This document shows, in pieces, positions 4,861 to 64,000 of a DNA stretch of 64,000 bases. Each line of letters starts with the position of its first letter. Position 1 is the stretch's first letter. A program made the position numbers and the translations under genes. Source of the stretch: an uncultured Desulfobacteraceae bacterium (GTDB taxonomy: Bacteria; Desulfobacterota; Desulfobacteria; Desulfobacterales; UBA5852). The notes beneath the pieces were generated by a model. The model did no database searches. It was not told where the DNA came from and saw only the letters and a list, made by a program, of their open reading frames with translations. The DNA lies in the NCBI GenBank assembly GCA_913060875.1, contig CAJXSL010000021.1:15017-79016 (forward strand). Direction: 5' to 3'.

Positions 4861-4942
4861 TTATATGAAATCGTCACGTTATTTAATTACCCTATATGGT
4901 TTATTGTAACGATATCCAACCAACCGGGAGGTAAACCACCCC

Positions 4943-7348: not shown

Positions 7349-7354
7349 AAAAAA

Positions 7355-8045: not shown

Positions 8046-8130
8046 GATAGTTCCTTGAAACCCAATATAATTAGTGATAATTATTGATAATAAGACCATT
8101 TCTCCAACGGAATCATACCAGAAACTGACA

Positions 8131-8835: not shown

Positions 8836-8870
8836 TGGCGGCTAACAGGACAAGCGGGTGAAGATCGATT

Positions 8871-10530: not shown

Positions 10531-10610
10531 GCCCTAACGAACATAACGATCTAAACTATCGTAACGACCAAAACTAACATAGCTATCCAAACTATTTATC
10601 GGGAATCTCC

Positions 10611-22301: not shown

Positions 22302-22379
<78 letters not shown>

Positions 22380-24690: not shown

Positions 24691-24767
24691 CGGGAAGTGG
24701 CTCAGCCTGGTAGAGCACAGCGTTCGGGACGCTGGGGTCGCTGGTTCAAATCCAGTCTTCCCGACCA
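24691..24767 (+). tRNA. tRNA-Pro (anticodon CGG)
   Basis: CGGGAAGTGGCTCAGCCTGGTAGAGCACAGCGTTCGGGACGCTGGGGTCGCTGGTTCAAATCCAGTCTTCCCGACCA. The anticodon arm is CAGCG-TTCGGGA-CGCTG. Confidence 0.9.
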
Positions 24768-43640: not shown

Positions 43641-43727
43641 TGGTGCCGAAGGGGAGATTCGAACTCCCACATCCGTACGGATACTAGACCCTGAACCTAG
43701 CGCGTCTACCAGTTCCGCCACTTCGGC
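43641..43727 (-). tRNA. tRNA-Leu (anticodon CAG)
   Basis: The reverse complement is GCCGAAGTGGCGGAACTGGTAGACGCGCTAGGTTCAGGGTCTAGTATCCGTACGGATGTGGGAGTTCGAATCTCCCCTTCGGCACCA. It has a long variable arm. The anticodon loop is TTCAGGG. Confidence 0.9.
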
Positions 43728-48510: not shown

Positions 48511-49065
48511 ATGCCGGCGACAAATTTTTACCATCGGCACCCCCTTCTTAACTCCTATCTGCTCTCTTTTCTCACCTTTTCCCTGCTGCTGCCCCCCTTT
48601 GCCCATCTTGCCATCGCTTCCATGACTGATCTCGAAAAACGCCAACGCGTCAAGAACATGTATACCGATTATCGAAAGGATTTTCCCGGCGTTCCCGAAA
48701 TCGATGCAGAGGCGGCCATCTCCCTGCTATCAGATCCGAATGTTGTTTTTGTGGATGTCCGTAAACCCAAAGAGCAGGCCGTCTCCATGATTCCAGGAGC
48801 GATCGGCGACAAGCAATTCAGAGCAAATCTGAACCGGTACCGCGACAAACGCATCATTGTCTATTGCACCATCAGCTATCGCAGCGGTAAACTGGCAGCC
48901 AAACTCGCGCGCAAGGGTGTGACGGTCATCAATTTAAGGGGGGGACTCTTAGGATGGGTGCATGCTGGTGGGCCGCTCGCCCGTGGGCAGCAACCGGTGA
49001 ATAAGCTCCATGTATATGGGCGCAAATGGGATCTGGCACCCTCTGACATCGAAACCGTTTATTGA
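48511..49065 (+). CDS. rhodanese-like domain protein with signal peptide
   Basis: It has ..VFVDVRKPKEQ..IPGAI.. and the IIVYCTISYRSG active-site loop. Confidence 0.75.
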   Translation: MPATNFYHRHPLLNSYLLSFLTFSLLLPPFAHLAIASMTDLEKRQRVKNMYTDYRKDFPGVPEIDAEAAISLLSDPNVVFVDVRKPKEQAVSMIPGAIGDKQFRANLNRYRDKRIIVYCTISYRSGKLAAKLARKGVTVINLRGGLLGWVHAGGPLARGQQPVNKLHVYGRKWDLAPSDIETVY

Positions 49066-49284: not shown

Positions 49285-50226
49285 TCATCGGTCAGAATTA
49301 TTTTCGAGAAGGCGGCTACTCAGAACATAGGAGCAACATAGTAACAAAATTAGATTTATAACAGTTGAAAAGCAGCGGTCAAACACCACGACCAAGGCGC
49401 TTAATCCGAAGGAATTCCCCATTAAATAGCTAATACCACCGATAATCCCTTCCCGAACCCCAAGGCCACCGGGCAGGATATTGACAAAACTTGATAGAAC
49501 GCTGGCGCCTGCGAATATCAAACATAACAAGAAGTTTATTTCATTTGAAAATATTGCAAATATAATCCAAAATCGTAAGGATATTAAACATATAAATATT
49601 ACTTGAATTCCAATTATGCGCACAAGCAATCTTTTGTTTTCTCTTAAGATTGACCATCCATTTTGAACATTATCGATTACCTTCGTGACATGGTGTGGTA
49701 AAAATCTATACTTCAGTGGGGCCCATTGAATGGCGATTGAAAAAGACATTAATATAAAGCCAACGATCAAATACAAAGATATTTGTACATCATAAAAAAT
49801 GGATAAAAGGAACAAGCTTATCAAACTTGTAATTCCATTCACGGAAAGGAAACAGGCAAATAATGCTACAGTCGCTGGTAAATAATGGCTAAATTGCAAC
49901 TGATAGCGCTTCTTCAAGTAAAGCCCCTTTGCAAATAACCCCCCAGATAACGGCAATAAATTACCAATTGTATTGAGAACGGCAATACTAATGCCTTCTA
50001 TTAATGACAATGGCGCATTTAAATTGCGGTAAAATTGAGTATTAATTAGACCTCGCGCAAATACAGAGCAAACAACCAGGAAGGTTAAGAGAAAGGATTG
50101 ACTGAATGACAGATCAAAAATTATCGCCAACTGATCAAAGTCAATTAATACAAAGTATAGAACTGTAGCAATAAAGATTATAAGGATAAAGTAATTATAC
50201 AAAATTCTAAAGTTCGTTATTGCCAT
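49285..50226 (-). CDS. UPF0104 / lysyl-PG-synthase-TM-type (flippase-like) membrane protein
   Basis: 313 aa, polytopic. It has the NILPGGLGVREGIIGG signature. AT-rich codon usage. Confidence 0.7.
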   Translation of the reverse strand: MAITNFRILYNYFILIIFIATVLYFVLIDFDQLAIIFDLSFSQSFLLTFLVVCSVFARGLINTQFYRNLNAPLSLIEGISIAVLNTIGNLLPLSGGLFAKGLYLKKRYQLQFSHYLPATVALFACFLSVNGITSLISLFLLSIFYDVQISLYLIVGFILMSFSIAIQWAPLKYRFLPHHVTKVIDNVQNGWSILRENKRLLVRIIGIQVIFICLISLRFWIIFAIFSNEINFLLCLIFAGASVLSSFVNILPGGLGVREGIIGGISYLMGNSFGLSALVVVFDRCFSTVINLILLLCCSYVLSSRLLENNSDR

Positions 50227-51125
50227 TACTCTACGCTAGAATAACCAAGTCTTTGCTTAAGCATAAGCATTTTGGATTCCAAAATCGCATGAATAGGCTG
50301 CGGTTCAATGGTTTTTATTCCGTATTCATGCTGAAAAGATGAATTCACTTTATGCATTAATAAATTTTTAAGTTTATAAACATATGTCTCATGTGACAAT
50401 TCAGGAATAATTTTGCCCAGAAATCTTGACAATTCTTCCTGGTCCTGGTCAATAAACAATTTTTCAAATTTAAAAATGGATGTTTTGTTAGGAAATTCAG
50501 CATTTAAATCACAAAATAGTTGATTCAAGAAACACCAGGTCCAATAAATCTTATCCGAGATAGTAAACTGGCTCCATTGGGATAACTCAATACCAATATT
50601 CGCCGGGGTAAGTCGCTTAAGCCCTAATATGTTAATCTTATACATATTATCTTTATCCCCGAATAGCCCTCTTCTCAACCATGAGGATGCCCACGCGTTC
50701 GGTTCACGTACGATAAAAACCACTTGACTATTTGGAAAATTTAATAGTTCACGTGTTAATCCAAAAAGCTGAAAGTTACACTCAACATAGGTATCATAAC
50801 CACTAGGAATCCATGTTCGATCCCTAATTATTCTTTTTATGACACCATCTGCATCGATTTGTTTTCTTAGTCGTTTTAATGAATAATTTCTAGTCCCGGA
50901 AACTCCCAATGCCTTTAAAAGTGTAAGTTTTATGACCCCCTGTTTGGCACATCTTCTTAGTGCCTCTTTAAGACTAAGAGTGTGAAGATCGATTTTATCA
51001 GGTTCATGTACCGCATAACAATTGGGAAGTAATTTGGGAATCGCTATGGATAAAAATTGTGTCCCTGTGCGACCAGCGGAAACGATAAATATTTTTTTTA
51101 ACCTCTTAAATTCTTCGGCATGCAT
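50226..51125 (-). CDS. putative sulfotransferase family protein
   Basis: KIFIVSAGRTGTQFL is a PAPS 5'-phosphosulfate-loop-like motif. FIVREPNAWASSWL is an RxPxxxxxS-like 3'-phosphate motif. Its stop overlaps the downstream start (TAATG). Confidence 0.5.
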   Translation of the reverse strand: MHAEEFKRLKKIFIVSAGRTGTQFLSIAIPKLLPNCYAVHEPDKIDLHTLSLKEALRRCAKQGVIKLTLLKALGVSGTRNYSLKRLRKQIDADGVIKRIIRDRTWIPSGYDTYVECNFQLFGLTRELLNFPNSQVVFIVREPNAWASSWLRRGLFGDKDNMYKINILGLKRLTPANIGIELSQWSQFTISDKIYWTWCFLNQLFCDLNAEFPNKTSIFKFEKLFIDQDQEELSRFLGKIIPELSHETYVYKLKNLLMHKVNSSFQHEYGIKTIEPQPIHAILESKMLMLKQRLGYSSVE

Positions 51126-51294
51126 AATAAACTCTGTTGTGAGATCGGCATTTCTATAAAATTTCTATAGTGTTAGACAGTTGCGCCTATGCCCGCCAGC
51201 TCAAACCACTTTTAAACCTTATCCATAACAGATGCTTTCAAATCCGTATTGCCAAGAAAACAATTGATATCGCCTAAATTTGATTTCCTGTTTT

Positions 51295-52377
51295 TCAGCT
51301 GTAGCCTTTCCTAATTAAGCAGTCCACAATTTTTTTTGACGGTGATATCGACGAACCTTCTTGTTTATCAGCAATCGTTTTCCAGTTAATAAATTTCTCG
51401 GTGATGTGCTTATCAAATCCCCAAAGCATCGCATTGATGCCAATTCCATCTTTTCGTTCTGTTTTATTCCTGATAATCAAGCACTTCTTGTTCAAAAAGG
51501 CGCATTCTTCTTGTATACTTCCGCCATCGGTTAATACCATTTCTGATGAAGTAACCAAATTTAAAAACTCCGGGTAATCCAACATACTTTTAATCATAAT
51601 ATTTTCATGTAGTTTTTCATTTAATTCAAATTTTTTTAAATATTTGATGGTTGGTTTGTGTACGACAAACACAACAAGCATTTTTTTTGCGACTTGATTG
51701 AGCAAATCAACAACCTCTGACAATCTCGCTCGGTCAGATATTGTTTCCAGTCTATGGCAGGTTGCAACAGCATACTTTTCTTTGTTATGTTTTTGGGGCT
51801 CATTTTTTTTAATGTAACGAATAGCGTCTATAACCGTGTTGCCCTCAACAAAAATTTTTGCACCTCTTACGTTAAGTTTCTTTAAATTTTCAAAAGCATC
51901 TCTTGATGGGGCAAACAATATTTTAGAGAAACGCATGCAAATCATGCGAATGATTTCCTCGGGAAATGGATCAAACCAATTGTAGCTTCTCAATCCAGCT
52001 TCAACATGACAGACTCTGACTCTAGCCAAAACTGCCATGAAGGCACCCAAAAGTGTGCTGATGGTATCACCGTGAATTAGACAAATACCTTTTTCGGGGA
52101 AAACATAATTTTTTAACCACTTTCTGTCCAAACTACTTTTAATTATATTTGTCAAAAACCAATGGATCGCCTTTGATATACTTGTAATATCTTTTGTTCT
52201 CGAATTGAGTGAAATATTAGGTTCCGCAATTTTGAATACCTTCCGCAATTCCCTCGTCAACTCAGCATGTTGACCGGAATCAATATAATTATAAGATATA
52301 CCTCGATTCTGGAGTTCCATAATTATCGGAACCATCTTAATAAATTGTGCCTTTGTACCAACAAATATGTGAATCAC
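51295..52377 (-). CDS. UDP-N-acetylglucosamine 2-epimerase-like protein
   Basis: It has IHIFVGTKAQFIKMVPI.., ..LIHGDTIST.. and ..HVEAGLRS.., as in the WecB family. 360 aa. Confidence 0.7.
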   Translation of the reverse strand: MIHIFVGTKAQFIKMVPIIMELQNRGISYNYIDSGQHAELTRELRKVFKIAEPNISLNSRTKDITSISKAIHWFLTNIIKSSLDRKWLKNYVFPEKGICLIHGDTISTLLGAFMAVLARVRVCHVEAGLRSYNWFDPFPEEIIRMICMRFSKILFAPSRDAFENLKKLNVRGAKIFVEGNTVIDAIRYIKKNEPQKHNKEKYAVATCHRLETISDRARLSEVVDLLNQVAKKMLVVFVVHKPTIKYLKKFELNEKLHENIMIKSMLDYPEFLNLVTSSEMVLTDGGSIQEECAFLNKKCLIIRNKTERKDGIGINAMLWGFDKHITEKFINWKTIADKQEGSSISPSKKIVDCLIRKGYS

Positions 52378-52445
52378 AAAATACCTCTAATTTTTTAGCA
52401 GCGTCTTCCTTCAAAATAAATGTCAACGGATACAGAATTTATTCC

Positions 52446-53327
52446 TCAATTATCGCGATCAGGAAATTTTTCACTTCTTTCATACACAATTTGACATATT
52501 TGTTCAGAGACCAACCCAATCATAAAAACGATGATTGCGGTTGTGAACATAAGGGCGCTCATATTAGTGAATCGTCCCCAAGAGATATAAGTATATAAGT
52601 AATAGCATAATCCGGTGACAAAAGTTAAAGCACTTACTGGCAGGAAAATTCTAAAAGGTGAAAAAAGTGTACAAATCTTGGTGATGATCAAAAAAAATCG
52701 GATACCATCTCTAAAAACTTTTATATTGCTTTTCCCACCTCGACGAGTTGACACATCAATATCCAAGTATTTCAGAGATCGTCCGGTTCGCAATATATAT
52801 AGAGTTGATGTCGTCGGATAGGAATACCGATTCGGCAAAAGGTATAAAAAACGATTTGCCACAGAAGATCTTACACACCGGAATCCAGAAGTCAGGTCTT
52901 TGACTTTAAACTTTGCGACATACGATGCGACCATATTGCATAAGAAATTTCCAACCCCTCTAAAAAGAGAAGCCTGCTGTTCCATTGATCTTGCTCCAAC
53001 TACCATGTCGTATTCAGATAAAGCATCGATCATGGGAGCAATATCCTTCGGGTTATGCTGTCCATCGGCATCCATGAAAACAAGGACATTGCCTTTTGCA
53101 TTTCGAATTCCCGTCTTAACGGCGGCACCGTTCCCGATATTATATGGATGCCTGAAAGGCTTCGCTCCCGCTTTTTTAGCAGTCTGAAACGTCGCATCAT
53201 TCGATCCATCATCGACGACAATAATTTCATACGCAGGATATTGAGCTCTAATTTCAGCAACGATTGAACCAATTGTCTGGGCCTCATTATAACAAGGAAG
53301 GATAATTGAAACGGACGATTCTGTCAT
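52446..53327 (-). CDS. GT2 polyprenyl-phosphate glycosyltransferase (GtrB/Dpm1/ArnC-like) with C-terminal TM helices
   Basis: It has VSIILPCYNEAQTI..VVDDGSNDAT..FMDADGQH. There are two C-terminal TM segments. Confidence 0.8.
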   Translation of the reverse strand: MTESSVSIILPCYNEAQTIGSIVAEIRAQYPAYEIIVVDDGSNDATFQTAKKAGAKPFRHPYNIGNGAAVKTGIRNAKGNVLVFMDADGQHNPKDIAPMIDALSEYDMVVGARSMEQQASLFRGVGNFLCNMVASYVAKFKVKDLTSGFRCVRSSVANRFLYLLPNRYSYPTTSTLYILRTGRSLKYLDIDVSTRRGGKSNIKVFRDGIRFFLIITKICTLFSPFRIFLPVSALTFVTGLCYYLYTYISWGRFTNMSALMFTTAIIVFMIGLVSEQICQIVYERSEKFPDRDN

Positions 53328-53362
53328 GATTTGACACCCTATATTCTGATTAAGCGGCCTCT

Positions 53363-55108
53363 TCAGTTATGAAAAATGGGGTCGTCGTCTAAGCCGTATA
53401 AGCCGAAACCATTCATTTCTTCAATTTTATGTGTGTGATATTGCAAGAAAGTATTTAGTTTTAAAATATCAGATGGCTCTAATTTCATTCTTAACCAGTT
53501 TTGGTAAAGATCCAGGCGCACCATCAGGTGCGTTATCTTTTTTTTATTTAAATGCTGTAATATATCATATGCGTTTTCTGAATCTGCCACAGCATTTAAC
53601 AACAACCCTTCATTAAAGGTTATGTCCCGATCAAAATAGTACATCCTTTGCCCGAGAAATAGCCCCAGTAGGACAGCATCCGGAGCCAATCGTTCATTGA
53701 CGTATTTGATAAGTGGGTACTCGGGACGCCGTTTAGTAATATACTCATCGCTTGACACTTTTCCGCTGACATACCCCATTGGCTGTACTTTTCGGATCCG
53801 TTCAGCCATGTAATTGGCATTATATCCAATCATCACGATCACAGCCATGCTTAAAAGTATCGTATAGAAGTATTTAAAGCCAACGGCATCTGTTTTACGA
53901 ATATAGTCCCATGAGCGATATATACCCATCATGCTCAGCACAACAATCGCTGGAAGTGCAGGAACAAGATATCGGATTCTGATTGGAGCGGTGAAAAACG
54001 CCATCAAAATAAAAATTGCACTAAACCAAAACCAAATGTGTTGTTCCGCTCGCAACTTAACCGTCATCGTTCCCACAGGTAAAATTCCAACGATTAAGAA
54101 CACGAGTAAAAATGGGTTAAGTTTGCCGTCAAAGTAGCGTGGACTGTCGTCACGACCTTCATAAAAAATTCTCAGAGGCATCAATGCCATATAACCCAAT
54201 GATTCCTTGAAAACCAAATGGCGGACAGTCATCGTACCGGATGTGTCTTGGACCATTGTTGATGTCCTGCTCCATTCGACGCCTTGTTTGTCATCCGCAT
54301 TGAACACCTGCTTAAACATCGGGTAGATAGGATTATTTTTCATAACCATGTTGCGAATCATCCAAGGAGAGAATACAGACAAAGAAATGACAGCAAAACA
54401 AATGGTGGCGTTCAGAACCGGCAGCATAGCCTGCTTGTTACCGATAGTTGAGGCTTGAATATTTTCCCGCCTAAAATCCTTCTTTTTCGTTCCCTCTCTC
54501 GACCGAATGAATGGTACCATTAGGCACAGTATAGCGAAGATCAAAAGCGCATTATATTTCGTTCCCAGCGAAAGTCCGCACCATACCCCGCTCCACATCA
54601 AGTGCCGCGTTTTGAATTCTGAATCTACCCAGCGAATCAGCATATAAATGGATGCAAATCCAAAAAAAGCCACTCCCAGATCAACATAGACTTCTGACGC
54701 CAACCGAACGACAATCGGTGTGGAAAGCCAGAGCAATGCTCCCATCAAACCGAACACTGCGCTCATTCGGGTCTTCAAATATTTGTACATCAACCAGGCA
54801 GTCAATAATCCGAAGACCAGATGAATGAACTTCGGCAGTATATCGTTTCCGAAAGCAAGCGCAGCAAGGTAAAGTAAATCCAGATTCATTGGATAGTATG
54901 AAAAGGGAATATTCGGGAGCTCTACTAAACCGCCATGTTTTAAATACAGCTTAGGCAGTGCGAGATGATGGGTAAGCGCATCGCGGCTTACGGGAGGGAC
55001 ACTAGCGGTTAACACAATCCCACCAATCAGAACAAAAAGCGCAAGTAATACACACCAATAAACCGCCTGTTGTGCTTTATTGGTGCTATGTTTTAACCAA
55101 TGTCCCAT
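53363..55108 (-). CDS. GT-C fold membrane glycosyltransferase (ArnT/PMT_2-like)
   Basis: 581 aa. It has about 11 TM segments followed by a soluble C-terminal domain. The first loop reads PVSRDALTHHLALPKLY. Confidence 0.6.
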   Translation of the reverse strand: MGHWLKHSTNKAQQAVYWCVLLALFVLIGGIVLTASVPPVSRDALTHHLALPKLYLKHGGLVELPNIPFSYYPMNLDLLYLAALAFGNDILPKFIHLVFGLLTAWLMYKYLKTRMSAVFGLMGALLWLSTPIVVRLASEVYVDLGVAFFGFASIYMLIRWVDSEFKTRHLMWSGVWCGLSLGTKYNALLIFAILCLMVPFIRSREGTKKKDFRRENIQASTIGNKQAMLPVLNATICFAVISLSVFSPWMIRNMVMKNNPIYPMFKQVFNADDKQGVEWSRTSTMVQDTSGTMTVRHLVFKESLGYMALMPLRIFYEGRDDSPRYFDGKLNPFLLVFLIVGILPVGTMTVKLRAEQHIWFWFSAIFILMAFFTAPIRIRYLVPALPAIVVLSMMGIYRSWDYIRKTDAVGFKYFYTILLSMAVIVMIGYNANYMAERIRKVQPMGYVSGKVSSDEYITKRRPEYPLIKYVNERLAPDAVLLGLFLGQRMYYFDRDITFNEGLLLNAVADSENAYDILQHLNKKKITHLMVRLDLYQNWLRMKLEPSDILKLNTFLQYHTHKIEEMNGFGLYGLDDDPIFHN

Positions 55109-55229
55109 CCCTTAATAATCGTCCAGGCATTTATGCCCTGCCATATTAGATGTTCAACAAAATATACGGGTAGGCTTTCGTATTGTTGAGGCGTCCGTTA
55201 TGGGATTTATTCCCTGAATGTGCCGCTCA

Positions 55230-56105
55230 TCAATCTTCATACATATAACGTTCACGCCGCATTACGCTAATTTGATCAACTACCAAACCGAAAAAAAAGA
55301 TCATCAAAGAAGCTAAAAGGCAAAGGAGGGCCCCGTTTGCCAGCGTCAACCGAACCGTGGCAATCACGTATGCAGCATAGGCCACACCCAAGCCAGCCAA
55401 TGCGAAGGAAACCGGAATAAAAATTCTCAAAGGACTGAATAGAATCACCAGTCGTAAAATAAGCATTAGTACCATGAATCCGTGCCTCACCTGTCGTACC
55501 GTACTAGTCCCTATTCTTTTACGTGTTTTAATGGGAACAAACTTGACAAGGAAACCCATTTTCATGGCCGCAACCGTCGACGTGGAAGTAAATGAGAATC
55601 CTTCCGGCATCAGGTGTAAAATTTTTTTAATGAAAGTTCGCCGAAAAACGCGAAGACCGGAATTGATGTCGGAAATCTTTCGCCCAACTATGATATTGGC
55701 AGCCCGTGTCAGAAGCCACTTACCGGGCACTCTAAAAATATCTACACGACTACCGGTTGCCCTTTCACCTATAACCATATCAAGTTCATAGGCTTCATTG
55801 TATAGTAGCAAGAGATCTTCAGGGCGGTGCTGGCCGTCCGAATCGTAGATAGCCAGCAATTCTGTTTCAGCGGCGCGTATTCCGGTTTTCAACGCTGCAC
55901 CGTAACCGCGGTTGTATGGATGGCATATCAACCGCAACCGATCGCTATAATGTTCAAGAATTGCGCCAGTACTATCATCTGAACCGTCGTTCACGACGAT
56001 TAACTGCCAGCCCTTCGATTCGATGTGAGGCAAAAGTTCATCTAATGTTTTACGAATCGCTTTTTCCTCGTTATAGACCGGAATAATGACGGTCATTTTA
56101 CTCAT
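55230..56105 (-). CDS. GT2 polyprenyl-phosphate glycosyltransferase (GtrB/Dpm1/ArnC-like) with C-terminal TM helices
   Basis: It has MTVIIPVYNEEKAI..VVNDGSDDST..YDSDGQH. There are two C-terminal TM segments. ATG 56105 has a GGAG RBS. The ORF is open to 56135. Confidence 0.8.
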   Translation of the reverse strand: MSKMTVIIPVYNEEKAIRKTLDELLPHIESKGWQLIVVNDGSDDSTGAILEHYSDRLRLICHPYNRGYGAALKTGIRAAETELLAIYDSDGQHRPEDLLLLYNEAYELDMVIGERATGSRVDIFRVPGKWLLTRAANIIVGRKISDINSGLRVFRRTFIKKILHLMPEGFSFTSTSTVAAMKMGFLVKFVPIKTRKRIGTSTVRQVRHGFMVLMLILRLVILFSPLRIFIPVSFALAGLGVAYAAYVIATVRLTLANGALLCLLASLMIFFFGLVVDQISVMRRERYMYED

Positions 56106-56241
56106 CAGATGCCACTCCACATATGAGATCGTCAATAAATAAAGGGCAAATTACTATGTTTGCTGTACCTTCCGGGTATTGTCATCTCTCTCGACATGCG
56201 ACAGCCACTTACATACAATTTGGCAGGCGATTATCTATCCA

Positions 56242-57216
56242 TCAGTCCAAGTCTTTTGACTTGGCGATCACCAATTCCTTCCGATGGTTTAGTCGCATCC
56301 AGAAAATTACGCTGATAATACCGACGCAGATAATGTAGACCAAATTGTACAAAAACGCAAAGCTCAGAGCACTGGCAGACGAAATTTCGAAACGCCCGAA
56401 AAGAAATATAAAAACAGCTTCGCGCGTTCCGAATCCGGCTATTGTTATCGGTATAAATCCAATCAAAATAGCGACCGAAACAACCATGGCGATGGTTGAA
56501 AAACCCAGGTCTAACCCTACAGAACGGCCAATTAAATAGGTCTGAAAAAAATAAATACCATAGCTCATAACGGTCAGTAGCAGCATAAATGCAATATCTA
56601 TTGATATAAGGCGTCCGGTGACTTTACTGAAAGTCTCAAATGCATCCGCCCATTTAGTGGTAAGACGGGCGGAAATGGATTCCCTGACCATACTCGAAAC
56701 ATGGCTGGTTCTCCAAAAATAAATTACGAACCAAGGCACGACAGCGACCGTAATGCAGAATATGCTGCCGACCACTGCTGAATTTACTCCAAGTTTCATG
56801 GGATATAAGCTCGTTACAGCAAATATCAACAGACAATATAGATCCAGACAACGATCGGCGAAAATACTGGGTAACGCTTCGCTGAGTGATGCCAAGCCTC
56901 TTTGTTTTAAAAAATATGCCTTGGCAACTTCCCCCAAGCGGCCTGGTGTTATCAACCCAATGTAAATTCCTGCAAAATAAAATGATAAGGCGAATCGAAA
57001 TGGGCAGTGAATACCTTGTCGAGCAAGCATTGTTTGCCAGCGAAAAGCACGCAATCCAACTTGGGGGAGGATCAAGATAATTGCGGCACCAATTAAAATG
57101 GGGTCACTTAACTTGAGTTGGCGCCAGACCTCTTCGAGATCGACATAATAAAGAATAATCGCCAATATCGCCAAGCCAATGAACTGGGAATATTTTCTCC
57201 ATTTCATTTTGGACAT
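56242..57216 (-). CDS. UPF0104 / lysyl-PG-synthase-TM-type (flippase-like) membrane protein
   Basis: 324 aa, polytopic. It has ..GLITPGRLGE.. and ..IAGFGTREAVFIFLF signatures. Confidence 0.7.
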   Translation of the reverse strand: MSKMKWRKYSQFIGLAILAIILYYVDLEEVWRQLKLSDPILIGAAIILILPQVGLRAFRWQTMLARQGIHCPFRFALSFYFAGIYIGLITPGRLGEVAKAYFLKQRGLASLSEALPSIFADRCLDLYCLLIFAVTSLYPMKLGVNSAVVGSIFCITVAVVPWFVIYFWRTSHVSSMVRESISARLTTKWADAFETFSKVTGRLISIDIAFMLLLTVMSYGIYFFQTYLIGRSVGLDLGFSTIAMVVSVAILIGFIPITIAGFGTREAVFIFLFGRFEISSASALSFAFLYNLVYIICVGIISVIFWMRLNHRKELVIAKSKDLD

Positions 57217-57368
57217 TGATTTTCCATTGATGAATCAGTAAAATTCATGTTGCACCAGAGCAAAGGTAACAACGTGATGCCTAGTTTTAGCAAAGCATAT
57301 GGGACAGGCCAAACCCATGTACGATTCGTTTGCTCATACCGCTCACTTCTATAAATAGCACCATCCTA

Positions 57369-58535
57369 TTACGGCAACGCTTTGCGAAGAATCTCCGGTG
57401 GTATCTGGGCCAGATACACCTTACCGTTAATAACATAGGCGGGTGTCCCCGATATATCCAATTTCATGCCGGCCCATATATCCTTTGCTAACAGCATCTG
57501 TAAATCAGTTCTTTCGCGCAGGGCTTTACGCATGCCCGACAGGTCAACGCCTGTCTGTGCGGCAAGATCTCGAAGATTTAATTCTTCCCTTTTGGAGCCT
57601 TTTTCAAATAAAAGATCATTCATTTGCCAGAATTTTCCCTGCTCATTGGCGTAAAGCGCCAGGATGGCCATTTGACCTGACCCTGTGTGAAAAGGCTCCT
57701 TCACAAGAGGATTGATGGCATGGTCCATTGGAAAATGTCGGTGCACGATACGGATACGTTCGGGATAACGGGCAACAAGCTTACGTAAATAGCGATGCAT
57801 CTTGCGGCATTGAAAACAGAGGTAATCCGTATATTCCGTTATTTCCAGCTCCGGACTCGATGCCCCGATCCAGGGATGCCCGTCATCGGTAATGCCGGTC
57901 GTCAGGGTCCCTATGGGCATTTCGTCACTATACTGCCAGTACGAAGGGAAGGCGACAATCGCCAGAAGCGATACCGATATGATAAAGACGCCACTCCAGC
58001 GCGTTATTGAATTGCACCACAACATGAGGAGGTCTTGCTTTAGCCCATTAAAAAATGAGGGGAGATAGAATCGTTTGCGAATGATCCAGATGTAAAACAA
58101 CAATAGCAGGTTTATGCCGTAGCTCAGGATGCACATAATACAATAGCTGTGGACATAATAGGTGGAAATGAATGCCAGAAGGACGCTATAGAGGCTGAAC
58201 AATACCGCGATCAATTGAAGAAGCGCCCAGCCGTTTTTTTCCCGGTGCCAATCCCCCTTTGCTTTGACGAGTAACAGTGAAAAGACCAGGTATCCCAGAA
58301 CGCCCCATACAGGCACCGGAACTCCTAATAAAATTGAAAATGGGCTTTGGGAAACCGTGTCGCAATTAATGGACTTACTGATGGCGCAAAAACTGCTGTA
58401 ACCGATATCGGCATATACCCTGTAATGGGATATGGACAGATAAACGGAGTCAGCCACCCCACATAGCGATAAGATGAAAGCCGGCCAGAAATAGACTGGA
58501 AATGGATATGCCTTGATTTCTTTTTTTGGATGCAA
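57369..58535 (-). CDS. vitamin K epoxide reductase (VKOR) domain fused to a DsbA-like thioredoxin domain
   Basis: N-terminal part: 5 TM segments with loop cysteines (SFCAISKSINCD) and CIMC in a TM helix. C-terminal part: periplasmic domain with YLCFQC (CxxC) and ..GTPAYVINGK. Confidence 0.8.
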   Translation of the reverse strand: MHPKKEIKAYPFPVYFWPAFILSLCGVADSVYLSISHYRVYADIGYSSFCAISKSINCDTVSQSPFSILLGVPVPVWGVLGYLVFSLLLVKAKGDWHREKNGWALLQLIAVLFSLYSVLLAFISTYYVHSYCIMCILSYGINLLLLFYIWIIRKRFYLPSFFNGLKQDLLMLWCNSITRWSGVFIISVSLLAIVAFPSYWQYSDEMPIGTLTTGITDDGHPWIGASSPELEITEYTDYLCFQCRKMHRYLRKLVARYPERIRIVHRHFPMDHAINPLVKEPFHTGSGQMAILALYANEQGKFWQMNDLLFEKGSKREELNLRDLAAQTGVDLSGMRKALRERTDLQMLLAKDIWAGMKLDISGTPAYVINGKVYLAQIPPEILRKALP

Positions 58536-58568
58536 ATTCTTCTACCTTGTTAATAACAACGCTGTTTT

Positions 58569-60644
58569 TTAACGTGGTGATTGGCTCCGCCCGATTGTGT
58601 GGATATGCTCTTGAAGAATTATCCGTAATTTTTCGGTATCGCCGATTTCATTGACCGAATCATTTAATATAGCAGCGATGGCACCAATCGAAAAACGGTT
58701 AAAAATTTCATTTATGATACGGTTTGCATTTGCCTGATCACGGCGGGCTAAATGATTCTCCAGCATGCAAAGCATGACGGTCAGATCTCCGGGAGCAACC
58801 CGGTAGGCCCGCCGTAAAAACCAGTCACCCTGGTCCGGATAGTCCATTTCTGTAAGCACGACCCCCATCTGAAGGTTAGCCGCCCGACTGTCCGGCTCAA
58901 GCTGCAACAGGCGTCGTGAAATCAATAGGGATTCTTCCAACCGATGTTGCTTCAACAGAACAAACCCTTTTAAATTCAGCGCATGGATATCATCCGGGTT
59001 ATTTTCAATCAGCCAGTCCAGATGCTCGGTGGTTCTTTCAAATTGACCGGTTTCCGTGTAGGCAACGGCAATATTATAACGCGATCTGGTTGTCGCCGGC
59101 AATATCTCCAGAGCCTTCTCATAATACGCGATGGCCCTGTCAAGATCGCCTTTTTTAAAGTAGATCGTACCGATGTTGGTCAAGGCCATGACCTCAAAAT
59201 GCTTTCTGCGCGGCGGCTGCAGCGACATACTCTTTATGTAAAGGATTATGGCCTGTTCATGACTACCCGCCCGTTCGAGTTCTTTTGCCAGATTAAAGAC
59301 CGGTCGCGCCCTTCCAGGCGCCTTTCGTTGGGTATCCGACCACAAACGGCCCTCGCTCCGCCAATCCATGTTGCGGGCATAGGTCCCTGCGCATAGCAAG
59401 AACACAACCAATATTGGCAAAATCCGGAACACTGCGGCGAATTGGTGGCTCCGCAACCGCAACTTTTTTTTTAAGTCAAACCATCCGGCTGCTATCGGCA
59501 AGAAAACAAAGATCGAAGATACATAATTTCTATGTTCAAAAACCAGTTCTAAAGGGAGAATGGAGGATTCAACAACATGGTTGAGAAAGAAAAACAAAAC
59601 AGCGAAAGCCTCAAGCGGCCGTTTGCGGATCATCAAAATCCCTGCGCCGATGAGGAGTCCTACGATTAAAATGGAAGGCAATGTGGTCCAGGGATGCAAC
59701 AAACTGGTGGATACCGTGAAATCGTGCTCCAAGGAAAGTCGCTGGGGGATCGGATAAAAAACGAGGCTAATATAAAAAACCAGCACCCGCGGCTGGGTCA
59801 TCAATCGTTCCATCAGTGAAAACGGCCTCATCTCAAAAGATCGTGTCAGTGAATGGACGATATCCTTATTCGACCCGTAAAAATATACGCCGCTGAAAAC
59901 AACGACTAACAAGCTGGCCATGATAATCGTGGCACCAAATCGAGGGCTGAGCACCCGCTCTGATTTTTCCTGGAAAAAAATTATTTCAACCAAAGCTAAT
60001 GCCAGGGGAAGCATTGAGGCGTTTTCTTTGGTTCCCATAGCCAGAATAAACCCTGCTAAAACCAGTCCTCCCCACAGGACCTTGTGCTTCATTCGGGTCG
60101 CTAATCGAAATTGGATAAAAGAGGCTAATGCCGCGATATAAAACAAGGCCATCAAGCTGGCCATCCGTTGGACAATATAAGTAACAGCCTGGGTCTGCAT
60201 GGGGTTTAGGGCCCACAGCAGGCTGGTCCCAAGTGCAATTGAATAGATATGCGCACGATGGCGCGCGGGGAAACGAGGTGTGGTTCCTATCAAAAGAATG
60301 ACCCGATAAACCAGCCAGGCATTAAGGATATGGATAACCAGGTTGATCAGATGAAACCCGGTGACATTGTCACCATGTAAAAACCAGTTGAGAGCAAAAG
60401 ACAAGTTGGCCACAGGCCGTGACAGGTTGTTGCCATAGAGTTGGTCAATGCCGACGGCCCGTAACAGAGATTCCCCGTTCCAAGCCGTCATCTGTATGGC
60501 AGGATTGTTGAGGATGTTGGGGTAATCGTCCATGTGCCAGGACGCATGAAAAGTGTTGCCATACGCCGCCAGCAAAAACAGGAGTATCGTCAGCAAGGCT
60601 GCCGCGTGTCTGCTTTTCGTTAAGGAAAATATCGGATCAATCAT
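58569..60644 (-). CDS. TMTC-like GT-C membrane protein with C-terminal TPR repeats (paralog 1)
   Basis: 691 aa. It has ..WHMDDYPNILNNP.., ..FHLINLVIHILNAWLVY.. and ..NPMQTQAVTYIVQRMASL.. About 10 TM segments are followed by TPR repeats. Confidence 0.7.
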   Translation of the reverse strand: MIDPIFSLTKSRHAAALLTILLFLLAAYGNTFHASWHMDDYPNILNNPAIQMTAWNGESLLRAVGIDQLYGNNLSRPVANLSFALNWFLHGDNVTGFHLINLVIHILNAWLVYRVILLIGTTPRFPARHRAHIYSIALGTSLLWALNPMQTQAVTYIVQRMASLMALFYIAALASFIQFRLATRMKHKVLWGGLVLAGFILAMGTKENASMLPLALALVEIIFFQEKSERVLSPRFGATIIMASLLVVVFSGVYFYGSNKDIVHSLTRSFEMRPFSLMERLMTQPRVLVFYISLVFYPIPQRLSLEHDFTVSTSLLHPWTTLPSILIVGLLIGAGILMIRKRPLEAFAVLFFFLNHVVESSILPLELVFEHRNYVSSIFVFLPIAAGWFDLKKKLRLRSHQFAAVFRILPILVVFLLCAGTYARNMDWRSEGRLWSDTQRKAPGRARPVFNLAKELERAGSHEQAIILYIKSMSLQPPRRKHFEVMALTNIGTIYFKKGDLDRAIAYYEKALEILPATTRSRYNIAVAYTETGQFERTTEHLDWLIENNPDDIHALNLKGFVLLKQHRLEESLLISRRLLQLEPDSRAANLQMGVVLTEMDYPDQGDWFLRRAYRVAPGDLTVMLCMLENHLARRDQANANRIINEIFNRFSIGAIAAILNDSVNEIGDTEKLRIILQEHIHTIGRSQSPR

Positions 60645-60673
60645 AGCGTCACTTTTGCCGTATCATCCAGACT

Positions 60674-62761
60674 TCACGGGGAGATCAAATGTTCTATTCG
60701 GGCACCTGCTAGATGGCCCGCGACAAATGGGCGGACAATGCTCATATCATAAAGAGGTGTGTCTTTCACGGAACTGGTGAATAACCCTGCAAGGATGCCC
60801 AAAGGAATTTGATAAATGAGTTCCCGCACGTAATCGTCCGCCGTTGATAGCTGACCGGATTTCAAACTCAGGTCGATCAAGCACAGTCGCGGTTTCAAAT
60901 TCCTCGGATCCAATCGTTTCGCCTTCTCGAGCGTGACGGCTGCCTCTGTCATCTCACCCACCCGAATCAGGGTCACACCCAGGTTCAGCAACGTATTCAC
61001 ATCATCCGGTTTCTGCGCTATCGATTGTTCAAACAGTTCTTGCGCTTCTTGCGGAAAACCCATCTGCAGCCGGATCAGGCCTGCCACATTCAGGTAATAT
61101 GGGTGGGATGGATTATGGTCCAATAGAGTTTGAGAGTGCGGCAACGCTTGTTTATATTTTCCCTCGGATATTAAAGCGGCAATCAAGTTGTAACGCGCAA
61201 TTTCATGCTCAGGAAAAACTTCAAGGGCACGGTCAAAATGTTCAATGGCGGGCCCTGTTTGCTGCCACTTTCGCAATAGCGTGCCCATGTTGGTCAGGGC
61301 GAGAGCGCGTGCACGCTGGGGGGAGGGGTCGTATAAACCCAGGGAATGTTTGTAGAGTTTGAAGGCCAATGGCAAATTGTGATGCGCTTCATAATAGGCG
61401 GCAAGCTGCAAGTAGGGTCGCGCCGTGTTTGGGGTCTTAACCAGGGTATCCTCCCAGAAAAGACGTTTGTTGCCCCACACCCGATTACGGCTGTAGGTGG
61501 CCGCGCCAAGGGCCACAATGACCATCACCGTCATCACCACGAGCAGGCCTTTTCGTAAACCTGCGCGGTCCTGGAAGGCCTCGATAGCATTTCTAAGAAC
61601 GGTTGCCACCGGAACGAATAAAAACATGGTCGGCAGGTAATTGCGATGCTCAAAAACCAGTTCTAACGGAATAATGGTTGATTCAACCACATGGTTGGCG
61701 ACAAAAAACAAAATCGCCAGTGCCACATAACGGTGTCGTCTTATGGCGGCCAGGCCGATACCGATCATCGCTCCGATGCTGATCAGGGATGGGATGGTGG
61801 TCCAGGGTTCGAAAAGAGAGGTTGATACTTGGAACTCGTGCACAAGAGAAAATCGCCCCGGTAAAGGCCACAATATCTGGGACAGATAAAATAGGACAAC
61901 CCGGGGCTGGGTCAGGAGTCTCTCCGAAAGGGTGAAGGGTCGCCCTTGGTAGGCACGCTCCAAATAATCGATGGGATTGCCTTTCCATATCCATAGAAAA
62001 GAAATGCAACCAAACAGCAAGACCGCGCCGACGCCGAGTGTCAACCGCACAATCCGCTTCCGAACGCCGGGCGTCTCCAAATCCTGAAAAAAAAGGATTT
62101 CAACAAGTAGGAGTGATGCCGGCAGTAAGGCCGTGTTTAATTTGGAGCCTAACGCCAGGGCGTAGCAAAGAGCACAACCAGCGAAAAAAACGATCCGGCG
62201 TCGGTGATTTGTTGGCTGGCGGCCGACAATGTATAAATAGACGGCCGTAATAAAGAAAAGAGCGGCCAGTGATGTGGATCGCTGCACAATGTATGTCACA
62301 GCCTGCGTCTGTAAGGGATGTAACGCCCACAAAACCGTGGCAACCAGGGCAATAAACTGTGCCCTTTCATCGTCGCGGCATGATTTGGGTGGGCTTCGGA
62401 GGAGAGCCTTCAGGGTAAGATAGAGAACCAGGGCCGACAAAAAATGAATCAACAGATTCACGGCATGGTAGCCAGCGACATCATTTCCATAAAAAAACCA
62501 GTTCAGCCCGAATGAAATCATGGCCACGGGCCGGTGGAGGATGCCGCTACTGCCGGGTTGGTTCGCGTGGTAGTAGGCACTTTTTAATATTTCAGTCGGC
62601 GAAAGATCGGCGATATGAATGGCCGTATTGTTGACGATGCGCAGAAAATCATCAAAATACCAAGGCACATGGAAAGTGTTGGCATAACAGGCGGCAACCA
62701 ATCCTAATATCAAAAGCGGTACCAGGTCGGTTCGTTCTGATCCTTTGATCTCGGACGGCAT
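60674..62761 (-). CDS. TMTC-like GT-C membrane protein with C-terminal TPR repeats (paralog 2)
   Basis: 695 aa. It is collinear with 58569-60644 (..WYFDDFLRIVNNT.., YHAVNLLIHFLSALVLY, HPLQTQAVTYIVQRSTSL, LELVFEHRNY). Confidence 0.7.
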   Translation of the reverse strand: MPSEIKGSERTDLVPLLILGLVAACYANTFHVPWYFDDFLRIVNNTAIHIADLSPTEILKSAYYHANQPGSSGILHRPVAMISFGLNWFFYGNDVAGYHAVNLLIHFLSALVLYLTLKALLRSPPKSCRDDERAQFIALVATVLWALHPLQTQAVTYIVQRSTSLAALFFITAVYLYIVGRQPTNHRRRIVFFAGCALCYALALGSKLNTALLPASLLLVEILFFQDLETPGVRKRIVRLTLGVGAVLLFGCISFLWIWKGNPIDYLERAYQGRPFTLSERLLTQPRVVLFYLSQILWPLPGRFSLVHEFQVSTSLFEPWTTIPSLISIGAMIGIGLAAIRRHRYVALAILFFVANHVVESTIIPLELVFEHRNYLPTMFLFVPVATVLRNAIEAFQDRAGLRKGLLVVMTVMVIVALGAATYSRNRVWGNKRLFWEDTLVKTPNTARPYLQLAAYYEAHHNLPLAFKLYKHSLGLYDPSPQRARALALTNMGTLLRKWQQTGPAIEHFDRALEVFPEHEIARYNLIAALISEGKYKQALPHSQTLLDHNPSHPYYLNVAGLIRLQMGFPQEAQELFEQSIAQKPDDVNTLLNLGVTLIRVGEMTEAAVTLEKAKRLDPRNLKPRLCLIDLSLKSGQLSTADDYVRELIYQIPLGILAGLFTSSVKDTPLYDMSIVRPFVAGHLAGARIEHLISP

Positions 62762-62963
62762 TGCAGCTCAACCTTCTTTTGCTGGATCTTTAGAAGAGGA
62801 TAGTTTTTAAATAGAGCGTTCGGCCACCAGCACAAACAGAATAATCTATTATCAGGGAAGGTTGAAAGGTCAAGCTCTTTTGATGTCAGGCCGTGCGGAT
62901 TGTCCTCGATGGACCATGATCGATAATTGAACGCGGCTAAACCATGGTATCTTTCTCCATATA

Positions 62964-62996
62964 AAAAAGGGGAGGCACTAGATGCCTCCCCTTTTT
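62964..62996 (-). terminator. rho-independent terminator after pilA
   Basis: The minus strand reads aaaaaggggaggca-tctag-tgcctcccc, followed by tttttt. Confidence 0.8.
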
Positions 62997-63025
62997 CGTA
63001 TTAATTATGTCAGGATCCTGGATGG

Positions 63026-63539: not shown

Positions 63540-63555
63540 AGCAATGAGCATGCCA
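63540..63555 (-). promoter_or_regulatory. sigma-54 (-24/-12) promoter for pilA
   Basis: The minus strand reads TGGCAT-GCTCA-TTGCT (GG-N10-GC), about 128 nt upstream of the pilA ATG. The adjacent gene is a PilR-like enhancer-binding protein. Confidence 0.7.
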
Positions 63556-63767: not shown

Positions 63768-64000
63768 CTATTTGTCGTCCGCCATCTTTCCCAGGCGGTG
63801 CCGGAAGGATCGGAAGGTGATGCCCAGCAATTCGGCTGCGCGGTTCTTGTTGCCATCGGAAAAGACCAGCGCCTTTTTGAGGTAGGCGTATTCGATTTCC
63901 CGCAGAACGACGTCCAGAGCCACGCCTTTGGCCACATCGTCCAAGTCGTAGCGCTTGCCTTCCACCCCTTCGATCCAGCGGCGCTTGTGCACCGAAAGCG
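63768..64000 (-). CDS. sigma-54-dependent Fis-family response regulator, C-terminal part (PilR-like; 5' end outside window)
   Basis: The frame is open to the window edge. The C-terminal Fis-type HTH reads ..ALVFSDGNKNRAAELLGITFRSFRHRLGKM. Confidence 0.75.
   Translation of the reverse strand, partial: LSVHKRRWIEGVEGKRYDLDDVAKGVALDVVLREIEYAYLKKALVFSDGNKNRAAELLGITFRSFRHRLGKMADDK

Follow-up and report, generated by a model that had tools for sequence, protein, structure and literature searches.

The window analysed here, a 64,000-nucleotide stretch of contig CAJXSL010000021.1 from an uncultured Desulfobacteraceae bacterium, contains a compact array of ten genes immediately downstream of pilA, the gene for the major type IV pilin, and we propose that the array is probably an accessory cassette for the glycosylation and oxidation of that pilin. 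All ten open reading frames (ORFs), numbered g1 to g10 in the direction of transcription, lie on the minus strand between positions 49285 and 62761 (Table 1). The successive gaps from g1 to g9 are 29, 33, 152, 106, 121, 35, 68 and 169 bp; base 50226 is common to g9 and g10, the g9 stop meeting the g10 start there. An initial annotation had described ten same-strand genes with short gaps or overlaps, and its ORF coordinates are identical to ours; its assignments of gene content are likewise borne out, with Pfam, NCBIfam, PDB and fold searches supporting the family calls for all ten products.

Table 1. Features of the pilA region and the downstream gene array, listed in the direction of transcription (TM, transmembrane; TPR, tetratricopeptide repeat).
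Feature	Coordinates	Strand	Evidence and remarks
pilR 3' end	63768..64000	-	Sigma-54 activator; C-terminal Fis-type helix-turn-helix (HTH), ending in ...AAELLGITFRSFRHRLGKMADDK and the stop
Sigma-54-type -24/-12 promoter, TGGCAT-N5-TTGCT (GG-N10-GC)	63540..63555	-	Consensus match only; precedes the pilA start by about 130 nt
pilA, major type IV pilin, 128 aa	63026..63412	-	N_methyl, E 2.5e-10
Strong bidirectional Rho-independent terminator	62959..63001	both	Between pilA and the cassette; 14-bp stem with 7 GC pairs, T runs on both strands
g1, TfpW/TMTC-like GT-C glycosyltransferase	60674..62761	-	Membrane domain of about 11 TM helices (residues 1-440) and predicted periplasmic C-terminal TPR domain
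g2, second TfpW/TMTC-like GT-C+TPR enzyme, g1 paralog	58569..60644	-	34% identity to g1
g3, VKOR-DsbA fusion, predicted quinone-linked periplasmic disulfide oxidase	57369..58535	-	VKOR 9e-25; Thioredoxin_4 9e-15; DSBA 5e-14
g4, UPF0104/LPG_synthase_TM flippase-like membrane protein	56242..57216	-	PF03706 6e-48; TIGR00374 1.8e-27
g5, GT2 polyprenyl-phosphate sugar synthase-like, C-terminal TM helices	55230..56135	-	PF00535 1e-30
g6, GT39/ArnT-PMT-like GT-C with C-terminal periplasmic domain	53363..55108	-	PMT_2 1.6e-9
g7, second GT2 polyprenyl-phosphate sugar synthase-like, C-terminal TM helices	52446..53327	-	PF00535 6e-31
g8, WecB-like non-hydrolysing UDP-GlcNAc 2-epimerase, start of variable tail	51295..52377	-	Epimerase_2 2e-61
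g9, divergent cytoplasmic PAPS-type sulfotransferase, variable tail	50226..51125	-	Sulfotransfer_4 2.6e-5, marginal alone
g10, second UPF0104/LPG_synthase_TM flippase-like protein	49285..50226	-	PF03706 7e-19

The association of g1-type genes with a pilin gene extends well beyond this genome. In a survey of one genome per species we found 79 loci with a relative of g1, mostly in Desulfobacterales, Desulfobulbales (including Candidatus Electrothrix and Electronema) and Syntrophales, with a few in Nitrospirota and Pseudomonadota, and 72 of these could be evaluated for their pilin neighbourhood. Cultured species with the cassette include Desulfonema magnum (L056), Desulfosudis oleivorans (L022) and Desulfofustis glycolicus (L026). 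At 54 of the 72 loci a pilin gene is found no more than 1.5 kb away from the GT-C+TPR gene, directly upstream on the same strand in 41 and convergent and directly downstream in 13. Inside this 1.5-kb distance pilin ORFs have a density of 0.306 per kb, compared to 0.021 per kb beyond 3 kb in the same loci (Poisson P about 1e-56). The recurrent order is pilA, one or two GT-C+TPR genes, VKOR-DsbA, a PMT-like gene and a GT2 gene. In a Pfam census at 27 pilA loci, covering 104 same-strand ORFs that follow the GT-C+TPR or VKOR-DsbA genes, the commonest families are GT2 (19) and PMT_2 (19), followed by PMT (14), GT4 (5), methyltransferase (5) and LPG_synthase_TM/UPF0104 (4). The core of pilA, GT-C+TPR, VKOR-DsbA, PMT-like GT-C and GT2 genes is old and widespread in the Desulfobacterota. 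The pilin had been named initially as a candidate target on account of its position, and this is now well supported by synteny across 79 species-level genomes and by the covariation described below.

A second type of locus is seen in Smithella/Syntrophales genomes (L050, L055, L073 and L046), with one to four tandem GT-C+TPR genes (four in both L050 and L055) followed by two or three convergent tandem pilin genes. These pilins lack cysteine and are of another class (FTLIEIIAVL...), and no VKOR-DsbA gene is present.

The VKOR-DsbA fusion provides a second, separate connection to the pilin. The mature PilA of the window (FTLIELMIV...) contains exactly two cysteines, C33 and C96 in mature numbering, and these positions are kept in 42 non-redundant pilins linked to a GT-C+TPR gene. 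A VKOR-DsbA gene is present in the locus for 36 of the 42 two-cysteine pilins and for none of the 26 pilins without cysteine. Among the six two-cysteine pilins that depart from this pattern, four are encoded on contigs that end just after the GT-C+TPR gene, and two are true exceptions, L010 and L029 (Candidatus Electrothrix laxa), which encode two-cysteine pilins beside a GT-C+TPR gene and have neither a VKOR-DsbA nor a PMT-like gene within 10 kb. The cysteines of g3 are themselves intact (the loop FCAISKSINC, CIMC and CFQC), and we propose that g3 forms the C33-C96 disulfide of PilA. Since VKOR-DsbA comes and goes according to whether the adjacent pilin has cysteines, it is this pilin on which the array would act.

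The g1 and g2 products are each about 690 aa in length, with a 440-aa membrane domain followed by TPRs (Pfam matches at residues 446-650 of g1). A stretch of 128 nt at 73% identity (59486-59613 versus 61600-61727) is a trace of the tandem duplication from which the two genes arose; g2 retains every family-invariant residue, and its orthologs in the related loci L001-L003 (see below) are 68-85% identical. The full-length AlphaFold2 model of g1 (pLDDT 86, pTM 0.81) has a TPR superhelix after TM helix 11, and since Foldseek returned only TPR proteins with this model, the membrane domain was modelled separately. With the resulting model (pTM 0.81) the PDB matches are the GT-C enzymes STT3, AglB, Pmt4 and ArnT, at probabilities of 0.97-1.00 and TMq values of 0.35-0.48 (STT3: E 2.9e-3, TMq 0.48), whereas all other folds, such as transporters and receptors, reach a probability of at most 0.23; the model thus points to a GT-C fold for the membrane domains of g1 and g2. 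From the number of helices and the positive-inside pattern of the loops, the TPR domain is assigned to the periplasm. The aspartates D37 and D38 (g1 numbering) of the first periplasmic loop are invariant in a 12-sequence alignment of the TM domain (A2) and at least 90% conserved in a 33-sequence alignment (A1), and R77, P78, K207, E371, R373 and Y375 are invariant in both. The aspartate pair forms a DDx motif (WYFDDF in g1 and WHMDDY in g2) and is followed by YRP, K-E-N and E-H-R-N-Y motifs, with R77-P78, K207/N209 and E371-H-R373-N-Y375 all in predicted periplasmic loops. The initial annotation had allowed that its GT-C calls might prove to be transporters or O-antigen ligases, and they survive on both counts, with only GT-C folds scoring high and no Wzy_C domain in any of the ten products; the latter also rules out oligosaccharyltransferases of the O-antigen-ligase type (PglL/TfpO). 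A tblastn search of plasmids with the TM domain gave no match.

The two GT2 proteins resemble enzymes that load sugars onto polyprenyl phosphate. Among solved structures, ArnC is the best full-length match to g5 (4e-15, including the C-terminal helices), followed by GtrB, with dolichyl-phosphate mannose synthase matching over the catalytic domain; its NCBIfam matches (AglJ, PpgS and ArnC) are all below cutoff, as are those of g7 to the equivalogs AglJ (3e-32), PpgS (1e-29) and PgfS (2.5e-20). Because the g5 orthologs are 291 aa long and align from residue 11, the listed TTG probably sets the g5 start too far upstream, and the ATG at 56105 is the likelier one. The g8 epimerase scores 204.7 bits against the wecB equivalog, for which the cutoff is 210. 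More than 3000 homologs of g6 also match PF02366 (PMT) and are named as GT39 or phospholipid carrier-dependent glycosyltransferases, and R42, D43, H47, H48, D89, D143 and K184 are invariant. Pfam searches found no small flippase of the GtrA or ArnE/F type in the block, and UPF0104 proteins occupy the equivalent positions. For these we infer a flippase role by analogy with MprF and from the literature on AglD and UPF0104 proteins. In the related locus L004 a GT2 domain is fused to a GtrA domain, which suggests that the flippase component is interchangeable. The three-part logic that had been proposed for the block, with a polyprenyl-phosphate sugar synthase, a flippase candidate and a GT-C enzyme, fits the domains as now verified.

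The g9 product required a family-level comparison for its assignment, as its own Pfam match is marginal. A word-indexed search retrieved six relatives, and a family profile 1646 representative clusters (among 1.84 billion representatives). In a sample of 57 relatives, 35 match Sulfotransfer_3 (best 1e-15) and 23 match Sulfotransfer_1, and the family profile retrieves almost only sulfotransferases from the PDB, including TPST1 (2e-6) and the CurM sulfotransferase (7e-6). R19 and R140 are invariant in an alignment of these 57 sequences (A7) and S148 is nearly so; the loop S16-A-G-R19-T-G-T22 and the pair R140...S148 correspond to the 5'-phosphosulfate loop and the 3'-phosphate R...S motif that bind 3'-phosphoadenosine 5'-phosphosulfate (PAPS). 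Judged by these matches and motifs, g9 is a real, divergent member of the sulfotransferase superfamily. The one-base overlap between the sulfotransferase stop and the UPF0104 start recurs at position 10900 of L084 and position 2351 of L085, and its retention in two relatives suggests translational coupling of sulfation and flipping. The earlier idea of a sulfated sugar is somewhat strengthened, because g9 belongs to the superfamily and overlaps a flippase-like gene.

The pilA gene itself lies downstream of pilR, and in L001-L003 the gene upstream of pilA likewise encodes a protein with Response_reg, Sigma54_activat and HTH_8 domains; it is from this adjacent pilR that a function can be suggested for the -24/-12 promoter. 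The window PilA is 97% identical to the pilins of L001 and L002. A search for serine or threonine acceptor sites in the 42 linked pilins shows enrichment at S34, S38, 75, 77 and 86-93, with none decisive. The arrangement of a pilin gene, a terminator and then accessory genes is a described feature that is typical of pilin cassettes (PMC11841053).

Taking these observations together, we favor a reading in which the array is a pilin-accessory cassette for the O-glycosylation and oxidation of PilA, and we put its probability at roughly 0.6. The families and folds of the ten products, the conserved catalytic residues, the synteny with pilA and the covariation of VKOR-DsbA with the pilin cysteines are what the analysis shows; the acceptor, the sugars, flipping by UPF0104 and sulfation of the donor are inferred. 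PilA would be matured while it is held in the inner membrane and its globular domain projects into the periplasm. First, at the cytoplasmic face, the GT2 enzymes g5 and g7 would each charge undecaprenyl phosphate with one sugar taken from a nucleotide sugar. Secondly, g8 would supply UDP-N-acetylmannosamine (UDP-ManNAc) to the g7 branch, and g9 may sulfate the sugar prior to export, such that the sugar would be strain-variable and possibly sulfated. Thirdly, the UPF0104 proteins g4, encoded next to g5, and g10, overlapping g9, would bring the lipid-linked sugars to the periplasmic leaflet. The three GT-C enzymes, g1, g2 and the GT39-like g6, would then move these to serines or threonines of PilA or onto sugars already attached, with the periplasmic TPR domains of g1 and g2 presenting a docking surface for the pilin, and g3 would close the single pilin disulfide and pass the electrons to quinone. 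PilR and sigma-54 would drive pilA, and the terminator probably limits read-through and so keeps the ratio of accessory proteins to pilin low.

Several observations weigh against this reading. First, the matches of the g1 membrane domain to GT-C structures have only modest Foldseek E-values (3e-3 to 9e-2), no Pfam model matches this domain in 12 family members even at E 5, a TM-domain profile gave no match to PDB sequences, and DUF1736, the loop domain of TMTC proteins, was found neither in these 12 members nor in the precomputed domains of 120 homologs. The likeness of g1 and g2 to TfpW is one of published description and motifs, not of sequence alignment. Secondly, 18 of the 72 evaluable loci have a GT-C+TPR gene with no pilin gene nearby, so the family is not exclusively linked to pilins, and the strong terminator separates pilA from the cassette, so that their co-expression is an assumption. 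Thirdly, where the role of a UPF0104 protein has experimental support, the system is a glycerolipid one (MprF, and gpgSDF, in which flipping is untested), and no such protein has been tied to polyprenyl-phosphate sugars (PMC12713373); with only 4 of the 104 downstream ORFs in the census, UPF0104 also falls outside the conserved core. Finally, we found no report of a glycosylated Desulfobacterota pilin in the searchable literature.

The absence of a nearby pilin gene at a quarter of the evaluable loci also favors an alternative in which the array is a general system for O-glycosylation of periplasmic proteins, recruiting many envelope clients through the TPR domains, with the pilin as the most abundant or ancestral of these. 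Neisseria pgl and the eukaryotic PMT and TMTC enzymes are examples of such systems, and the latter two each have many substrates. The GT-C+TPR family is very large, with 2889 matches among 8000 scored candidates, and many genomes encode multiple paralogs, with five in a single locus in L038 in addition to the tandem sets of four noted above. We consider this alternative unlikely, since the adjacency to pilA is tight and is repeated in two orientations and with two classes of pilin, and the presence of VKOR-DsbA follows the cysteines of the pilin itself, which speaks for a cassette specific to this client; the precedent of TfpW, moreover, is described solely as a pilin glycosyltransferase.

A modification of envelope lipid or polysaccharide is a further alternative and, at a slightly lower probability, also an unlikely one. 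The GT2 and UPF0104 proteins would then make and flip a glycosylated membrane lipid, possibly sulfated, in the manner of gpgSDF/HexSDF, or the GT-C enzymes would decorate lipopolysaccharide or exopolysaccharide in the manner of ArnT and GtrC, with the adjacency to pilA being merely positional; a milder form restricts this to the variable tail, g7-g10. The gpgF gene, a UPF0104 member, is the predicted flippase in the gpgSDF operon that makes glucosaminyl-phosphatidylglycerol, and because this UPF0104 gene serves a glycolipid pathway the alternative is sustained, especially for the tail. The ArnT/GT39 family to which g6 belongs includes bacterial lipid A modifiers, and the variable gene content of the tail resembles that of O-antigen loci. 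A homolog of g9 is also found without a pilin or GT-C+TPR gene in view, at L086 (GCA_021772755.1, 4220-10870), where the order is GT2, a 655-aa protein, a polysaccharide deacetylase, LPG_synthase_TM, Sulfotransfer_3 and the g9 homolog; this array resembles the gpgSDF/HexSDF operons except for its two sulfotransferases, and its product may be a sulfated aminoglycolipid. However, g5 and g7 have C-terminal TM helices and polyprenyl-phosphate sugar synthases as their nearest named families, with g5 aligning over its full length to ArnC and GtrB, and they are unlike lipid GT4 enzymes such as GpgS. The block contains no deacetylase, its three GT-C enzymes need a polyprenyl-phosphate sugar donor for which g5 and g7 are the sole candidates in the block, and the linkage of the GT-C+TPR, VKOR-DsbA, PMT-like and GT2 core to pilin genes is far beyond chance.

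It is much less probable that g1 and g2 are non-catalytic factors for pilus assembly or stability, i.e. membrane-anchored TPR scaffolds similar to PilF, PilW or Tgl, with g6 as the only enzyme. Homologs do carry the names 'Tfp pilus assembly protein PilF' or 'TadD' in their source records, there are weak NCBIfam matches to the TPRs of PilW and Tgl, and a study of cable bacteria took the homologous genes to encode TPR proteins for protein-protein interactions; but the PilF and TadD names derive from the TPR region only, the 440-aa membrane domain has a predicted GT-C fold, and polar and acidic residues in its predicted periplasmic loops, among them the catalytic-type DD pair, are strictly invariant or nearly so.

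The closest relatives of the array show which parts of it are conserved and which are variable. These are the metagenomic contigs L001/L084 and L002, at about 80% identity, and L003, a Desulfobacteraceae metagenome-assembled genome at about 64%, all of which have the order pilR, pilA, two GT-C+TPR genes, VKOR-DsbA, UPF0104, GT2, in some a methyltransferase, PMT-like and GT2. This methyltransferase, a 249-aa S-adenosylmethionine-dependent enzyme, is encoded between the g5 and g6 orthologs at 5221-5970 in L001/L084 and at 17203-17952 in L003; the window lacks it, and the corresponding 121-bp gap (55109-55229) has no listed ORF. Relatives with 62-90% protein identity share both the slot between pilR-pilA and the rhodanese and rpe genes and the gradient in GC content described below, and the L084 array ends at the same rhodanese/rpe flank. 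The departures are in the tail. The window has an epimerase, a sulfotransferase and a UPF0104 gene; L002 has the epimerase and UPF0104 genes with no g9; L084 has all three and, before the rhodanese flank, an extra GT2 gene and a gene of the MptA_B family; and the tail of L003 starts with a GT4 gene. Thus g8-g10, which is also the part richest in AT, behaves as a strain-variable glycan-tailoring region.

The initial annotation had noted an abrupt shift in composition at each end of the block, and that on the rhodanese side is confirmed, with an edge at 49.1-49.5 kb where GC falls sharply from 0.54 (48.5-49.0 kb) to 0.34 (49.5-50.0 kb) at the 3' end of the array; there is no edge at 62.8 kb. GC instead climbs gradually, from 0.31-0.37 (49.5-52.5 kb) through 0.38-0.46 (52.5-58.5 kb) to 0.44-0.52 (58.5-62.8 kb), and merges into values of 0.47-0.52 beyond the block, against a window background of 0.47-0.60. 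The GC content of third codon positions (GC3) rises from 0.31 in g9 to 0.57 in g1, with 0.58-0.74 in the downstream flanking genes. No tRNA gene or long direct repeat flanks the block and no integrase is encoded among the ten products, and a mobile-element origin was rejected on these grounds. The horizontal acquisition originally suggested is therefore not upheld; relatives share the order, slot and GC gradient, so the core is vertically inherited, and only the AT-richest tail varies in content. A recent genomic island with cargo unrelated to the pilin has in its favor the low GC and GC3 (chiefly at 49.3-53.3 kb), the abrupt edge on the rhodanese side and the differences in tail content among close relatives, but is very improbable and for the core already largely refuted, given that gene order, GC gradient and both flanks are common to relatives, that the core order recurs in Desulfobacterales, Desulfobulbales and other lineages, and that the hallmarks of mobility just mentioned are absent.

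Downstream of the array are convergently transcribed genes for a rhodanese, rpe, rsmB, fmt, def and ribF. The rhodanese-domain protein (48511-49065, plus strand) has a hydrophobic N-terminal segment, and its gene is kept as the neighbour of the array in L084; it may be a mere flank, or may have a tie to sulfur or thiol chemistry. The window contains three tRNA genes (22305-22379, 24691-24764 and 43644-43727), the nearest of which is 5.5 kb from the end of the cassette. At the other end of the window (537-12215, plus strand) is an exopolysaccharide locus of the exosortase/PEP-CTERM type, with genes for an Exosortase_EpsH and DUF3485 fusion (537-2189), a GT4/WecA-like transferase (2859-4496), an 801-aa protein consisting entirely of TPRs (4943-7348) and a Wzz/GNVR chain-length protein (10611-12215).

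A broader proposal, which we regard as speculative and on balance rather unlikely in its full form, is that O-glycosylation of the major pilin, through a bacterial counterpart of the TMTC/PMT system, may be routine in Desulfobacterota, among them the cable bacteria and syntrophs for whose pilins a conductive role is under debate. In this scheme TfpW/TMTC-like and GT39-like GT-C enzymes would use undecaprenyl-phosphate sugars, the UPF0104 proteins would be the long-sought flippases, a dedicated VKOR-DsbA would oxidize the pilin, and in this genome a sulfated residue derived from ManNAc would be added, giving a pilus that is strain-variable and anionic. Pilin glycosylation by GT-C enzymes would then extend from a few Pseudomonadota with TfpW to a large environmental phylum, and the unannotated pilA-adjacent 'tetratricopeptide repeat protein' of hundreds of genomes would gain an enzymatic role. 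The pilins of Desulfobacterota and cable bacteria are candidates in the debates on conductive pili, and a glycan coat that is dense, variable between strains and possibly sulfated would alter the charge of the surface, the packing of filaments, susceptibility to phage and the way in which cryo-electron microscopy maps are interpreted. The covariation of VKOR-DsbA with pilin cysteines is a clean, testable case of a client-dedicated disulfide oxidase, and the locus offers a tractable setting in which to study flipping of polyprenyl-phosphate sugars by UPF0104 proteins.

The initial annotation could name no system that the combination of genes matches, yet precedents for its parts can be recognized: the architecture is that of the Pseudomonas aeruginosa group IV pilA-tfpW cassette, and the trio of GT2, UPF0104 and PMT/STT3-like proteins has been described in archaea. 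The P. aeruginosa cassette, which by analogy is the closest known system, reportedly has the order pilA-tfpW(-tfpX) together with a pathway for D-arabinofuranose (D-Araf), and is said to have been described by Kus in 2008 and Harvey in 2011. TfpW is a GT-C protein of 646 aa that has 11 TM helices, a DDX motif in loop 1 and TPRs forming a periplasmic domain; its gene lies immediately downstream of pilA, and it glycosylates serines or threonines of the pilin from a polyprenyl-phosphate sugar (Villela 2020, bioRxiv 10.1101/2020.04.19.049825). The predicted features of g1 are alike, with a GT-C domain of about 11 TM helices, a loop-1 DDx and a sizeable C-terminal TPR domain in the periplasm, and the layout of pilA, terminator and g1 (start at 62761) matches that of pilA-tfpW, an arrangement kept in 41 loci. 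The predicted donor, a monosaccharide linked to polyprenyl phosphate and made at the cytoplasmic face, is also shared. The proline motif YX6PFX7P of TfpW (periplasmic loop 4) is matched only in part, with Y292-x6-P299 invariant, no F, and H308 in place of the second proline.

There are nonetheless clear departures from the TfpW cassette. None of the ten products matches the DPPR synthase, DprE1 or DprE2 families, and this absence of D-Araf genes, with Dpm1/ArnC/GtrB-like GT2 enzymes instead, implies a donor of the hexose or N-acetylhexosamine type. The window has two tandem GT-C+TPR paralogs and a third, GT39-like GT-C enzyme, UPF0104 proteins in place of a GtrA-like protein, and a VKOR-DsbA fusion, an epimerase and a sulfotransferase, and has no TfpX.

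Among eukaryotic enzymes the parallel is with TMTC1-4, in which a GT-C membrane domain is likewise followed by TPRs, on the lumenal side, and which use a lipid-phosphate-monosaccharide donor and serine or threonine acceptors on folded beta-rich domains (PMC7801869). Of the published TMTC motifs, M1 (DD), M2 (SHKSYRP), M4 (KE(T/Q)xxT) and M7 (ERxxY) (PMC7801869), the first is present in loop 1 of g1 and g2 and the others are partially so (L-Y/H-R-P in loop 1, K207-E/L-N209 in loop 3 and E371-H-R373-N-Y375 in loop 5, respectively), the comparison being with the motifs as quoted and not with aligned TMTC sequences. Unlike TMTC, the enzymes of the array have no DUF1736 match and no evident RxD or DW motif, belong to a bacterium and would use undecaprenyl phosphate as the carrier where TMTC uses dolichyl phosphate.

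The logic of a GT2 synthase, a flippase and a GT-C transferase is shared with the GtrA/B/C, ArnC/ArnEF/ArnT and CsbB/GtcA/YfhO systems. In Streptococcus mutans, the PgfS/PgfM1/PgfE/PgfM2 system combines an epimerase with two membrane GT-C proteins and has protein targets, and the array is similar in having an epimerase beside membrane GT-C enzymes and in the PgfS match of g7. It differs from all of these in that the flippase candidates are of the UPF0104/MprF type rather than GtrA-like or SMR-like, and in combining three GT-C and two GT2 enzymes in one array that is linked to a pilin and a disulfide oxidase. UPF0104 genes beside glycosyltransferase genes, with a predicted flippase function, are found both in the conserved archaeal neighbourhood of AglD-like GT2, UPF0104 and PMT/STT3-like genes, a predicted glycosylation unit (Makarova 2015, PMC5898192) that also has a GT-C enzyme, and in the bacterial glycolipid operons gpgSDF/HexSDF, of which gpgSDF acts on phosphatidylglycerol with a GT4 enzyme and a deacetylase (PMC12713373); neither is linked to a pilin, and neither has VKOR-DsbA or a TPR-bearing GT-C. 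We also considered the Synechococcus pilin glycosyltransferase Ogt as a relative and rejected it, as it is a cytoplasmic GT41 enzyme.

A locus of the same type has been reported in Candidatus Electrothrix, where the pilA cluster contains pilA, TPR proteins, a methyltransferase, a phospholipid carrier-dependent glycosyltransferase and a glycosyltransferase (Geelhoed 2023, PMC10580974, Fig. 4); the TPR proteins were taken there as protein-protein interaction modules, and no role in pilin glycosylation or disulfide formation was proposed (PMC10580974). Two of our surveyed loci, L024 and L029, are from cable bacteria, and the window differs from these in its Desulfobacteraceae-like lineage and its extra variable tail. 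The locus is best read as a variant of the TfpW-type pilin glycosylation cassette, one that is widespread in Desulfobacterota and carries its own dedicated oxidase together with a tail that varies and may add sulfate.

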